DNA from: Eledone cirrhosa
Lineage: Eukaryota
Assembly (NCBI GenBank): GCA_964016885.1
Contig: OZ024741.1
Span: 76,694,001-76,758,000 of the forward strand
Length of the DNA stretch: 64,000 nucleotides
Reading direction: 5' to 3'
This document shows positions 1,544-63,713 of this stretch, in pieces (the stretch's first letter is position 1; every line of letters starts with the position of its first letter). The notes under the pieces are model-generated. The model worked only from the letters and a program-made list of their open reading frames with translations, was not told the DNA's origin and made no database searches. The position numbers were made by a program, and so were the translations under genes.

Positions 1544-2999
1544 CTATAAAAGTAATGGAAAGTTTACAATGAATTTTATCGTAACACATGTTTTGTTGTA
1601 TTAATTGATATATTTAAATTGTATAATAGAAGTGGATAAAATGCCAGTTTATCACAGGTCATTATTCACCAAACATTGAAGCAAGTCTGAGTGAGTGACA
1701 AAGAAGTTAGCACACCCACACTCATACACACACATATATATAAAAAAAGTTGAGAGGACACCCAAGTCATGACATGGCAGCTTTTTTAATGCTGGTGTCA
1801 CCCAGTACACCCTGTAAGGTGACTAGTGATAGAATAGGCATCCAGCTGTAGAAACCATGTAAAATAAAGCGCTAAGAAGACTCTTCAGTCATGTCAAGAA
1901 CATAGTCTCTTTAGTGTTGGTGATCTACATGATAAATTCCCCCAGTACATTCTGTAAATTTATTGTTGATACACAGAGCATCCAGTTAGGAAACCTGTCA
2001 AACAAAGAGTTTGGAGGATTCAGGTGTGTCAAAAAAATGACTATCCCTCTATTGCTGGTGTTAGAATAAAATGCTCTCGGTAGAGTGTGGAAATGTATAT
2101 AAGAGAGATGTAGATACTCGACCCATCTGAGGTCAGTAACTGTGCTTGACTACTGACATGGTCTGTAACAACCCATCCAATGCTTGCTGGCAAATACGTT
2201 AAATTATGATGATGATGATGATGATGATACATATTTATATTTTGTGTATGTAAATGTATTATTCCAGTTTTCATAAATATATATAAGCAAAAGGTCAACA
2301 AGGAAAAACAACACAGAACATACAGTACAATGATGATATATATATTAGTTTAATGCTTGATATAGTTGGAAAAGAGTCTTAATATTTTGGATGTTAGTCC
2401 TTCATCAGAGGATAGAATGAGGGATATAAGAAGAAATAAAAGATAGAGGAGAGTGAAAAGAGTAAGAAATGGAAGAAAAAAAAAAATTTTTTTTACAGGG
2501 AATAAGCATGTTTGTGTTTAGTCAATCTGTATTCTCTTTTCTTTTCTTTCTATCTCATCCTCCCCCTTTAAGTATCTTAGCACTAATGTTAGTTTATCAC
2601 CCATAGTGAATCATCTACAGTGGACAGCATAAATGAACATATATAGCCACTCCCTAAAAATAAAGTAAAAACATACAGCAATGATTCCCTATCAACACTC
2701 AAACCACCCCACCAACTCTTATACACCATTTGGTTATTTTCCTATGGATACCATAGGTAGTTACACACATATATATTTATTTTTTGGGATTGCACAAATA
2801 ATTATAGTTACACTTTCTCCAATGTGATGCTGTTACAATATTCCCTGGCTGTATGAAGTAACTGACTGTCTAATAATCTAGATTTCATGGGCCTGCGATT
2901 GGATATTATATTACATAATGTATTGAAACTCATGTCAAAATTACTAATAATTATTAATAAAAGAAATATTGAACATTAACATCTATGCCTCAGTGATTT

Positions 3000-3670
3000 T
3001 TCTACAGCCCTTGAATATTTGTATATATATAATATATATGAGCTGTGTGCAGAGAACCTATGAAGATTGGAAAGAAATGAAGGCTCCGATGGATATGTAA
3101 TATATGAACAGCAATGTTTAAATGAACTAAGAGAAACTGAATAAAGGGGATCAGATGTAGTGCACAAGAGAGTAGATTGCATTCGTTGACCATGTGATGC
3201 ATATGACGGATGACAGCTATATAAAAAGGTGCAAGGCGATCAAAGAACAACTAAAAAGACCTGGAATGAGGTGATAAAAGCTGACCTTGCACAACTATGC
3301 CTCCCAAAGACGATGACACAGGATTAAGATTTTTTATGTTATGTAGTAATGCAAAAGACTTTTCTTCCCATGCCCATAGGTTGAAGCATACATCTAGTAG
3401 GGACCAATTAACTCCTTCCAAATACTTCTCACACCCTAATACTCCACCAACAACTTAATCAACCCACCCTTCTCCCATGCCTTTACACCACCTGCTCCAG
3501 CCCCCAGCCCACACTGTAAATGTGGCTGGCATTAGGAAGGGCATCCAACCGTAGAAACCAAGCCAGAAGCAATAAGAGAGATGTAGTCACCTAATCTGAC
3601 TTGCCTCAAATGGGACAACCCGTCTAACCCATGTTAGTGTGGAAAATAGATGTTAAATGATGATGATTAT
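3000..3670 (+). mobile_element. Degenerate RTE 3' fragment
   Basis: Similar to 58380-58750 (RLERNE, KTWNEVIKADL) plus the RTE 3' tail. Confidence 0.7.
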
Positions 3671-5349
3671 ATAGGAGCTATATAGTTGTGCTGTAATGCT
3701 GCTATTATCATAAAGATGAAGATATATATATATATGATAAGACCATATCCAAATGTCTATTCTTATCCATTGGAGGTTGAAATCCTATTGTGCTTTTCAC
3801 AAATAATAGATCTTTGTAATTATATTTGAACATTTTCTATAGTACACTGTTCACTTTCTTGACATTTGTACATTATTCTATGTACTATACATGCACCTTT
3901 GATGAGTTGTAGTGCGCCTGAGCACTGTACACAATAATTTCATTATTATTATTAAATATTCTCTTCCATTTCTGCTTGAAATGGTCATTTTCTAAAAAAT
4001 AATTTTTGCTTAATATTCCATTCTTGTTTTTCTGTTCTATTATCGTGGAAAGATGTTTTCTAGTTGATGTATCTGGTGATGCTGTTATATCATCTTCCTT
4101 GTATTGTTAGTTTGCTAATAGGTTTATGCCATCTTATTTGCCTTGTTCGTCAATTTTGGCCTATTCTTCCATATATATTGTTTATTAATGGCTAACAAAG
4201 GAGTTGCCTTTTGTTGTACAAATTATTGACTTTCTTCTGTCCATTCTTTAACTACATTTACATATAGATGAATGTTAATTATCGTAGTTCTTTGGTTAAT
4301 CTTCTATTTATATCTTGAACAATTTTGGAAAGAATTTCAATTCCTTCTATTGTTGTGTATTTTTTAGAGAGTTATTTGCTATTGTATCTTTTTCATAATT
4401 ATGTTCATACTCCTGTAACCACAAATTTTTCATTTCTAATATTCTTTTCAATTTTTCTTCTTTTCTCTGTACATTTCTCTGTACTTTCCCATATATAAGT
4501 CAGTTAATTTTTCTCATTTCGTTCCATTTGTTCATTTCTTCTTGCATCATGGAATCACATTTCTTGAACTTGTTCTTGATTTTTGGTACTCAAAATTGGA
4601 AGAAGTTGATCTCCACTTCAAATTTCTATCTGATGGCCATTTATCTGATGGCAGCAGAGTCCTACCTTCTTTCCTACTTACTAAAACTTTAGCCTTAACA
4701 AAGTTTATTTTGGGTCACAATGAATCCAGATTTTGTTTCCATATCTGGAAACTTTCTCATTCTGTTAGTTTCTGCTATGAAGGCTGGATCATCAACATAA
4801 AGGGGTTTATATGGGTAAATAGTCTTGAATTCTTCTGTTATGATCTCAGGAACAATTAAAAAAACAGATAGTGGACCTGCATGCTAAATTTATTGTTGTA
4901 CTTGTTGTTAACTGTCACCTAGCTGGCAGTATCTCTGTACATGGTTTGGGCACCCCTCACAAACTATTCATCTATCCTTAGCTTCTTAAGTACAGACAAT
5001 GGAACTCTATCAAATGCATTTTCAAGGCTGATGAAGGTTAAGAATAGAAGCTTATCTCTTAGCTAAATAGTTCTTCTGTAGTAGTCACATAATAAGAAAT
5101 ATGGCATCAGTAGTGATTCTCCCAGGCAGAAAGCGAAAGTGTATTTCATCAAGATTAATTCTGTTATATACATATATCAATATCATCACCATCGTTTTTA
5201 CATCCACTTTTCTATGGTGGAATGGGTTAGAGACAATATTATACAGCTGGATGCACTTTCTAATGCCAACCATTATATATATATATATATATATATTTAT
5301 ATATTATAAAAATATGAAAAATAACCGAGGTGTCCTACACGAGTGAAAG

Positions 5350-63306: not shown

Positions 63307-63307
63307 T

Positions 63308-63713
63308 ATAATTATGGATGGTTTTCTGGAGGGGATCAGAAAAAACCCACACTTAAATAAGGTATTAAATATGTTAGTAGAGAAGAAGCATATATATATT
63401 TTATATAGAAATAACTTCTACAGGACTAGAACTGTTACATCCTGATGATTTCACATGAATGAAACAGTTCTAGTCATCTAGAAGTCATCTCTCTCTCTCT
63501 CTATATATATATATATAGAGAGAGAGAGAGAGATGACTTCTAGATGACTAGAACTGTTTCATTCATGTGAAATCATCAGGATGTAACAGTTCTAGTCCTG
63601 TAGAAGTTATTTCTATATAAAATATATATATGCTTCTTCTCTACTAACATATTGAATATCTTATTTAAGTGTGGGTTTTTTCTGATCCCCTCCAGAAAAC
63701 CATCCATAATTAT
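63308..63713. repeat. Palindrome of about 400 bp centred on (CT)n(TA)n(AG)n, with a hammerhead-like motif in each arm
   Basis: Arms differ at only about 2 positions; CTGATGA at 63442. Confidence 0.92.

Follow-up and report, generated by a model that had tools for sequence, protein, structure and literature searches.

The hammerhead-like motifs of the window (the whole 64,000-nucleotide stretch of DNA analysed here) are mostly broken, folded-back ends of Penelope-like retrotransposons (PLEs) of a known kind: pLTR hammerheads, inverted copies, tails and (TA)n targeting have been published for PLEs, and the occurrence of pLTR hammerheads beside (TA)n is not itself new. The motifs belong to repeat families, four of which (A, B, C and G) are linked to open reading frames (ORFs); the arms of the fold-backs are asymmetric; and the 5' ends of the copies accumulate at hot spots associated with TATA-like and initiator-like motifs. 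On this sequence evidence it is quite probable that most of the motifs are decayed end fragments of many PLE families, deposited as copied-back cDNAs, and that the RNA of one family, B, would start inside loop II of its hammerhead. Excerpts of two papers (PMC8557442, PMC7761336) describe the role of the hammerhead in PLEs as unclear or as a mystery. A start site that splits the ribozyme would constitute a natural test of that role, since cleavage would then be predicted at the 3' pLTR alone and would be linked to keeping the cap and to removing the site at which reverse transcriptase (RT) starts.

The six protein kinase D (PKD) exons identified by tblastn lie on the minus strand at ~48776-48916, 47326-47448, 26078-26317, 16726-16821, 13854-13991 and 1436-1543 (Table 1). 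An earlier, sequence-only reading had placed all of the motifs within the introns of one gene; this is correct for 18 of the 22 hammerhead-like sites and incorrect for those at 53710, 56420, 60815 and 63442, which lie upstream of the most 5' PKD exon found. Its proposal of at least seven distinct families is confirmed, because nine multi-copy families (A to H and that of the 2395 site) were found in or beside the PKD introns, with the sites grouped as it had grouped them; of the ten short inverted repeats that the window was found to contain, nine can be assigned to these families. Real repeats are present at every site it named, most copies being decayed and a single one intact. The CUGAnGA box it described is absent from either arm at 5735 and 23677, the 20895 copy is confined to sequence 3' of the cleavage site, and at the family level the motifs are supported apart from the G core and two of the weaker sites. 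Among the sites it had regarded as weaker, 2395 represents the ninth family, for which BLAST gave 20 matches counting the window copy; the other two, 56420 with a single related locus and 60815 with no GAAA, are not supported.

Table 1. Features of the window. Positions are those of the whole stretch.
Positions	Strand	Feature	Details
1436..48916	-	Protein kinase D host gene	tblastn, fish PKD1 query, E 3e-21 to 2e-6
2289..2429	-	2395 family (cluster 10), minimal hammerhead	Copy decayed, GAAA lost
5311..5650		Family A fold-back, Neptune-like	Both arms; U3-A8 cores 5542 (+), 5458 (-); stem III palindromic, stem I just 2 bp in this copy; centred on the hot spot of the family's 5' ends; - arm carries tail
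5662..5863		Family B fold-back, Hydra-type	Both arms begin within loop II; only GAAA, stem III, UH and 3' strand of stem I present; tail on + arm
11146..11496		Family C fold-back, Neptune-like	Two decayed cores
17316..17398	-	Family C fragment	Decayed
17907..17978	-	Family C fragment	Decayed
20860..20997	+	Family D, 3' end plus tail alone	Hammerhead core absent
23150..23340		Family D fold-back	Sole intact hammerhead of the window, 23280-23332 (+): stem I 7 bp, stem III 4 bp, predicted cut 3' of 23325; C3 mutated in - arm
23524..23747		Family E fold-back	Both arms begin downstream of the family's CUGAGGA box
26979..27278	-	Family G 3' pLTR	Atypical hammerhead-like motif at 27158
27772..29837	-	Penelope-like ORF, RT + C-terminal GIY-YIG	Two frames; parent of family G; 5' end at (TA)n tract
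29884..30040		Old family B relative	Decayed 3' half, flanked by two (TA)n tracts
30203..30683		Family F inverted pair	+ arm lacks GAAA; - arm C3 -> U
39147..39711		Family G fold-back	Arm complementarity 99%
40135..41567		Family H inverted pair	Cores 40297 (-), 41405 (+); a deletion shortens stem II
42489..42681	+	Family H copy	Core 42575, mismatch in stem I
42710..42910		Family D fold-back	Cores retained; damage to stems
53612..53815		Family C copy and short inverted arm	Decayed
56385..56435	-	Weak candidate	Core and GAAA, poor stems
63306..63715		(TA)n-centred palindrome duplicating whole family D insert	Cores 63442 (+), 63579 (-); 99% perfect

The same reading had claimed that most motifs are part of an inverted duplication next to (TA)n. 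Inversion is present at 15 of the 22 sites, according to our own reading of the repeat comparisons; (TA)4+ lies within 250 nt of 19 of the 22, against 49% of random positions, and within 100 nt of only 10, against 26%, where the distance thresholds were chosen after the fact and the 22 sites are non-independent. None of the 103 matches that an Rfam scan of the window gave at E <= 5 was to a hammerhead family, and a strict descriptor matched one site (23287 +), compared with 0.37 per shuffle in 30 shuffles, so that by this test the window alone is not above chance.

The situation is different in a sample of 1 Mb spaced evenly over the genome, in which the strict descriptor detects 118 motifs, against 5, 5 and 2 in shuffled sequence. 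Extrapolation gives a genome load of ~2.6e5 motifs, a density computed from the 106 that were kept after 12 matches to a satellite (L323) had been dropped as artefacts; 11 of the 106 come from one tandem array, and each fold-back arm is counted. When 134 matches were selected without regard to stem I, 58 had a stem I of at least 4 bp, compared with 6.0 (maximum 15) in 1000 permutations, and 56 of these 58 have C3-G8 or U3-A8. The proposal that ribozyme-bearing elements are a major source of short palindromes is likewise upheld: 62 of the 130 short inverted repeats in the sample derive from these families, and 51 of the 62 adjoin (TA)n. The figure of 62 is a lower bound, as further families were found among the remaining inverted repeats; clusters 23 and 25 (a SINE flank and a spurious cluster) were left out of the library used. 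One 310-bp tandem array was seen at locus L290.

At the family level, a type I hammerhead fold with a Watson-Crick 3-8 pair, GAAA, UH and three stems is found in A, B, C, D, E, F, H and the 2395 family, F being one pair short of the strict descriptor; among the window copies only that at 23287 constitutes a whole motif. The expectation of minimal, dimer-type hammerheads with a palindromic stem III holds for A, E, H and the 2395 family, where stem III is a short palindrome, and fails for B and D, where it is a hairpin of 4-5 bp; stem III of C and F is near-palindromic. Several families have a U3-A8 core, the 10.1/11.1 pair is commonly U.U, C.A or A-U, and loops II span 40-110 nt. U17 occurs in 15 of the 58 motifs with a stem I of at least 4 bp; U17 is a slow cleavage site. 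Family G departs from the type I core, with U3.G8 and A9 changed to G in 42 of 45 matches, and a sister family shares the U3.G8 and G9 core; the G copies are 99-100% identical, and stem II covaries despite the off-consensus core.

That family B has no core was considered and rejected, since its longer copies contain a U3-A8 box ~60 nt upstream of GAAA. All four bases occur at its position 7, and a C3.A8 mismatch is present in 22 of the first 100 whole motifs listed. Covariation of positions 3 and 8 and a free position 7 are signatures of catalysis. The C3.A8 motifs and the off-consensus core of the young family G indicate that not every lineage can need cleavage in order to spread. The predicted minimum-free-energy structure of the whole B motif is a three-way hammerhead in three of three copies, with U16.1/H17 pulled into stem III in two of them, and an RNA begun at the B initiator is predicted to place GAAA in another hairpin.

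The link to GIY-YIG/RT elements is borne out both by the G ORF in the window and, elsewhere, by the ORFs adjoining A and C (Neptune-like) and B (Hydra-type). The G repeat is the 3' pLTR of the ORF at 27772-29837, and an ORF is linked to 8 of 30 G loci (two pairs overlap). The ORFs of B (locus L361) and C (L363, with RVT_1 and GIY-YIG) each lie between two direct pLTRs of the family, and family A has RT ORFs on both sides, with direct pLTRs at L362. A single ORF combining RT with a GIY-YIG-type endonuclease (EN) at its C terminus, as expected of EN+ PLEs, is found in G and C; in the A ORF, RT and linker were seen and EN was not. The linker CX2-5CxxC occurs at L362 and L363, and these two families are Neptune-like by linker, not by RT phylogeny. 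The B ORF, for which there was no Pfam match, was assigned by motifs: it has the DKT, CxCX5C, CxxC and CxH marks given for Hydra in excerpts of PMC8557442, RWR replaces RWK, and the ORF is shorter than 3 kb; the Hydra-clade call derives from motifs, not from a tree. Families D, E, F and H showed no ORF in two extended loci per family and have pLTR-and-tail anatomy only. Visual inspection shows an inverted, 5'-truncated copy with a tail at one end in A, D, E, F, G and H, and in B exactly one arm is tailed in 31 of 34 fold-backs, the other 3 being unclear. Arms of the same B fold-back differ at 0.38 non-CpG sites, compared with 2.05 between loci.

In A, B and D, 5' ends pile up ~30 nt past a TATA-like box. 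Measured from core N3, and counting loci not retrieved by the family's own query, 13 of 19 ends in A fall at -46 to -35, 26 of 32 in D at -10 to +1, and 48 of 69 in B at +39 to +50; the corresponding boxes are at -72, -38/-39 and +14. The TATA-like pattern, which was widened after family B had been inspected, occurs by chance at 0.036 per 9-nt window. The hot spot thus precedes the ribozyme by 40 nt in A, lies in stem I in D and lies in loop II in B. In family B, 33 of 44 arm ends lie no more than 4 nt from the A in TYAGT, the interval from -5 to -50 contains no ends, and 3 arms run through; the ends are spread over ~10 nt with a downstream tail, and TYAGT is retained while other loop II positions vary. 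The hot spots of clusters 1, 4, 9 and 10 and of family H have no TATA-like box, G has no clear one, the case of C is ambiguous (two peaks, flawed reference) and that of E rests on 3 of 6. Two other sources of the ends were rejected: ribozyme cleavage, because each hot spot of A, B and D lies upstream of the cleavage site, and splicing to an acceptor located at the hot spot of B, because the ends include AG and have no common upstream exon. No untemplated cap G was distinguishable from arm microhomology. Contigs of runs X1, X2 and X4, which come from one study and possibly from the source sample, show steps in depth at the hot spots of B and A; contig depth being a poor and non-independent measure, these steps are given no weight. 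In the literature searched, no report of TATA-spaced 5'-end pile-ups was found; Lunse 2017 and Arkhipova 2017 may describe such variants.

The spacing of the ends from the TATA-like boxes suggests that the short inserts are likely to be cap-bounded cDNAs. RT would begin within the tail, immediately 3' of the hammerhead, extend to the 5' end of the RNA and then copy back, leaving next to (TA)n one arm with a tail and an inverted one lacking it. In family B, if the hot spot corresponds to the transcription start, the RNA would begin at the predicted promoter start within loop II, and only the downstream pLTR would carry a ribozyme able to cut; the mRNA would then retain both its cap and the RT start site, while cutting at a whole 3' ribozyme would remove that site from long B transcripts. 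Pattern counts over the genome give 7,090 whole B motifs and 67,592 3' halves (controls 0 and 4), so the catalytic 5' half is retained in 7,090 of 67,592 arms and ~9 in 10 copies are half ribozymes. Retention of the cap and of the RT start site would explain this ~9:1 excess, and it is likely that the half-ribozyme copies are due to an element promoter inside loop II, with cleavage expected only in the downstream copy. A fuller account, whose chances we regard as evenly balanced, is that of a Hydra-type element with a Pol II promoter nested in loop II of a monomer-competent U3-A8 hammerhead, which makes a half-ribozyme capped mRNA, is cut only at the 3' pLTR, and yields cap-to-tail 5'-UTR cDNAs whose copying-back at (TA)n supplies at least half of the short palindromes, in a genome with ~2.6e5 intact hammerheads of at least 25 families, a number above the highest published count found (126,247, in the axolotl).

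The hot spots could have arisen differently within a Penelope origin, as RT stalls or nuclease cuts at a bound protein or structure, with loop II of B containing no promoter. The families without a TATA-like box and the spread and downstream tail of the B ends are compatible with this, but the position of the hot spot within the ribozyme varies among A, D and B while its distance from the TATA-like box is constant, the upstream edge in B is sharp, and TYAGT is conserved in an otherwise variable loop; we consider it unlikely. A promoter without TATA, internal to the element, in D. virilis Penelope, as described in excerpts of PMC2377424, counts against the TATA model.

It is also rather improbable that the motifs are catalytically idle relics retained as structures that bind protein or pair with RNA, in which case two RNAs would be held together for twin priming by the palindrome of stem III or loop III. 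The 3-8 covariation and free position 7 oppose this, although the C3.A8 subfamily of B, the off-core and yet near-identical and covarying G copies, the palindromic loop III that B retains despite a stable stem III, the predominance of B RNAs that would be coreless, one mixed A/B junction (L020) and the insertion in vitro that hammerhead mutants leave unaffected in excerpts of PMC11167929 all speak for it. Twin priming by two random RNAs is unsupported, because arms of the same fold-back agree in subfamily. A third reading would see in the palindromes MITE-like units that replicate themselves, or assembly artefacts, and would ascribe the motifs to chance; the lone strict match in the window and the near-perfect, (TA)n-centred palindrome at 63306-63715 speak for it. 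Fold-back junctions that vary between copies, independent mutations in the arms, the ORF links and the excess over shuffled sequence in the 1-Mb sample make this reading very improbable, and for the families as a whole it is refuted. The retroelement origin proposed by the sequence-only reading is supported.

The elements resemble several known systems. The minimal type I hammerheads of Cervera and de la Pena 2014 (PMC4209133, excerpts) share the pLTR location, the many families per genome, the mostly solo truncated copies, the opposite-strand pairs, the palindromic stem III and, in S. mansoni (~1,300 matches), the U3-A8 variant. The extrapolated load given above compares with 2,000-9,000 there, with different descriptors, and the 10.1/11.1 pairs, long loops II, 4-5 bp stems III of B and D and proposed splitting of the B ribozyme by a promoter differ from what those excerpts describe. 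Hydra and Neptune PLEs, as excerpted from Craig et al. 2021 (PMC8557442), share RT with C-terminal EN, the inverted 5'-truncated copy, the one-ended tail, (TA)n targeting and, in Hydra, hammerheads; here tails reach ~90 nt, and the Hydra-type family B has a U3-A8 core and its 5'-end hot spot in loop II. The 'HHR_half_core' cases that its methods mention, with 35-50 nt spacing, are possibly related motifs with a long loop. Anolis Poseidon PAc (Frangieh et al. 2024, PMC11167929) resembles these elements in that RT starts internally in vitro at two sites bounding the tail, targets are AT-rich and uncleaved RNA is used as template, whereas its hammerhead is whole and overlaps the start codon; excerpts of that paper report no cap-bounded fold-backs. 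D. virilis Penelope also has its promoter within the pLTR, and an RNA-processing boundary, the 3' end of an intron, remodels helix I, so that its ribozyme is altered by splicing where that of B would be halved by a start site (excerpts of PMC2377424, PMC4209133). In a plant LTR element with a hammerhead, the LTR-driven mRNA is untranslatable until the hammerhead is mutated (PMC12029980).

The 5'-end hot spots may allow PLE promoters to be mapped from genome sequence alone, and the genome provides a library of natural core variants overlooked by short-spacer descriptors and Rfam: recurrent U3-A8, a C3.A8 intermediate which has spread, U.U at 10.1/11.1, long loops II and the atypical G. Fold-backs in pre-mRNA would form long double-stranded hairpins, which are possible editing or siRNA substrates. 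Non-LTR retrozymes, which are PLE-related and have type I hammerheads, include the largest published count found, 126,247 motifs in the axolotl (excerpts of PMC7229834, PMC7761336 and bioRxiv 10.64898/2026.07.22.740005); they are tandem circRNA units, arranged head to tail with a hammerhead in each, whereas the window copies are inverted pairs or solo fragments.

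Hammerhead-like motifs are more frequent in the 3.0-Gb, AT-rich animal source genome than in shuffled sequence, the comparison that the sequence-only reading had called for. In a 1-Mb sample of 100 evenly spaced 10-kb stretches, a strict descriptor matched 118 times, compared to 5, 5 and 2 times in local shuffles. With 12 matches from one satellite dropped, 106 were left in 43 of the 100 stretches, and a stratified bootstrap puts the genome-wide load at 2.6e5 (95% interval 1.8-3.5e5), with a background of about 1.2e4. The sample is representative: three exact patterns occur at similar densities per Mb in the sample (21, 3 and 4) and in the whole genome (22.6, 2.4 and 4.3). 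Among 134 matches selected without regard to stem I, 58 had one, as against 6.0 by permutation. When the 282 matches from the whole of the fetched sequence are grouped, 28 clusters have at least two members and 23 matches are singletons; about 25 of the clusters look real, and five are entirely U3-A8. Intact motifs are unevenly spread, with 99 in the 79 sampled stretches of contigs 1-5 and 7 in the 21 of smaller contigs when satellite matches are set to zero. Further long-loop families, whose core boxes are 60-110 nt apart, were seen at five fetched loci (L026, L252, L260, L279 and L057).

The suggestion that ribozyme-bearing elements are a major source of short palindromes also stands: of the short inverted repeats, hammerhead families account for 62 of 130 in the sampled stretches and for 9 of 10 in the window. 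Within the sample, (TA)n adjoins 51 of these 62 repeats versus 35 of the 68 others.

Every listed window site was read on both strands and then matched to family references, and genome searches, each scoring the best 40 candidates, provided 30 loci per family for eight families (A to H, named from sites 5540, 5735, 11370, 23280, 23677, 30604, 39475 and 41401). The sites are real and the original reading of them is correct in outline, with cores that can be parsed at the level of the family for all of the multi-copy families except G. Of the individual copies in the window, only 23287 passes the strict descriptor (against 0.37 per shuffle), the remainder being decayed, truncated (5735, 23677, 20895) or unsupported (56420, 60815). 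Family A, parsed at the family level, has a U3-A8 core. Its stem II measures 4 bp and its stem I 2-4 bp, stem III is a palindrome of six bases, and the family's exact pattern has 12,750 matches genome-wide (control 0). Family B also has a U3-A8 core; its stems I and III measure 5 bp each, and a loop of some 40 nt caps its stem II. Cores are C3-G8 in C, D, E, F, H and the family of site 2395; U.U occurs at 10.1/11.1 in D, E and F, and U17 in the window's C subfamily, E and F.

Family G fails the hammerhead core: of its 45 matches, 42 carry U3.G8 together with G9. Its sister family has an ORF 67-72% identical over the main stretches and two compensatory changes in stem II. The atypical motif common to G (window 27158, 39321, 39482) and this sister Penelope-like family (L255, L259, L318), in which UUGAU directly precedes a 4-bp stem that is capped by a GUGA loop and followed by GAAA, is either a novel form of the core or a relic without function. 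A C3.A8 mismatch is found in 22 of 100 whole family B motifs (the first 100 among the matches listed), and the subfamily that carries it, which spread nonetheless, is likely a step between C3-G8 and U3-A8. Because of this mismatch, and because G is young yet off-core, cleavage is not necessary for every lineage to spread.

The proposed link to RT/GIY-YIG elements holds for A, B, C and G. G is situated 3' of the window's Penelope-like ORF, as it is of the same ORF in 8 of 30 G loci, and A, B and C adjoin such ORFs in extended loci; none was found for D, E, F or H in two extended loci per family. The family B ORF carries the Hydra marks given in PMC8557442, and B fold-backs (paired inverted arms) share the inverted-copy-and-tail structure described there. 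Of 34 B fold-backs, about half of which came from B's own query, 31 have one tailed arm, while the other arm stops at a TA within the element, where it meets (TA)n. This structure is consistent with the pair of internal RT start sites reported in PMC11167929. The two arms agree in subfamily (0.38 versus 2.05 differences), and no common junction is shared by the copies.

The 5' ends of copies concentrate at hot spots. When loci fetched by a family's own query are left out, the ends fall within 12 nt in 13 of 19 cases for A, 26 of 32 for D and 48 of 69 for B (10/20, 30/36 and 42/77 in an earlier binning with other references); C is ambiguous, and E rests on 3 of 6. Each of the A, B and D clusters lies about 30 nt downstream of a TATA-like box, by a pattern which was widened after B was seen and has a chance of 0.036 per 9-nt interval scanned. 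A CCAAT box lies upstream in A and B, and B has an initiator-like TYAGT. Mapped to the single base, the ends of 33 of 44 B arms are at most 4 nt from its A; the interval from -5 to -50 contains no end, and 3 arms continue past it. No TATA-like box was found at the hot spots of H and of clusters 1, 4, 9 and 10 of descriptor matches (the last being the 2395 family), and none is clear for G, although some references in this check may not be natural upstream sequence. The D. virilis Penelope promoter is TATA-less (PMC2377424).

Judged from sequence, the hot spots probably correspond to RNA 5' ends, and the short inserts would be cDNAs running from tail to cap that were afterwards copied back. Because the start would lie about 43 nt before the core in A and within stem I in D, the 5' UTR would hold a whole or nearly whole ribozyme, copied uncut. 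The B hot spot, at about +43, falls within loop II, so that the ribozyme is likely split by the promoter. A B transcript begun there would keep both its cap and the site where RT starts, and cutting would be confined to the 3' pLTR. In predicted folds the whole B motif forms a hammerhead by itself, while the initiator-started RNA hides GAAA in another hairpin. The 5' half of the ribozyme is kept by 7,090 of 67,592 B arms, or 10.5%, a slight underestimate given that a longer pattern has more positions to match exactly. The cost that the split arrangement would avoid is seen in a plant retrozyme: mRNA driven by its LTR was untranslatable until the hammerhead was mutated (PMC12029980). At another locus, L281, the fold-back point lies just before GAAA, and this may be a second split family.

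The window elements belong to a known kind. Hammerheads in pLTRs, the presence of many families in one genome, the U3-A8 core, inverted copies, tails and a bias toward (TA)n have all been published (PMC4209133 and PMC8557442). The analysis adds the scale, natural core variants and, for family B, the likely splitting of the ribozyme by its promoter. In the covered passages of the literature on Penelope hammerheads, promoters and truncation, hammerhead variants and dimers, U3-A8 and cephalopod Penelope-like elements, no description was found of a promoter within loop II or of start-site-bounded fold-backs, which are provisionally considered novel. The only cephalopod count found in that coverage is 235 Rfam matches in giant squid (PMC6962438), and the largest published count found is 126,247 in axolotl (PMC7229834), which refers to canonical motifs and is not like for like with the present estimate.

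The host gene and other elements of the window are collected below with two features of fetched loci.

Features of the window and of fetched loci
Feature	Sequence	Position	Strand	Remarks
Protein kinase D gene	window	1436-48916	-	six exons
Penelope-like ORF	window	27772-29837	-	RT and C-terminal GIY-YIG, two frames
LINE-type RT ORFs	window	36803-38735; 58098-58784; 60762-62914	-; +; +	one with PHD finger (Pfam); presumably RTE-like
Broken non-LTR RT element	window	30921-33455	+	RVT_1 and weak zf-RVT match
Pif1 helicase 2B fragment	window	52000-52332	-	PF21530, E 6e-15; probably a Helitron remnant
Decayed Penelope-like ORF pieces	window	56882-57355; ~18255-18395	-; -	one resembles the window ORF C terminus, one has a Hydra-like YxDD region
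Short repeat copies	window	23757-23849; 39737-39828; 59148-59252		inserted in (TA)n; resembles a tRNA-derived SINE
Near-perfect inverted repeats (97-98%)	window	30384-30847; 57293-58152		outside assigned hammerhead families; the former nested with the family F pair
99% perfect palindrome	window	63306-63715		centre is (TA)n; duplicates whole family D insert; secondary hairpin event or assembly artefact
Head-to-head junction of B arm and A arm	L020	~1450-1520		each arm ends at its own 5'-end hot spot; 17-nt filler
Tandem array of 310-bp units	L290	~280-3400	-	intact type I hammerhead in each (11 seen); retrozyme-like
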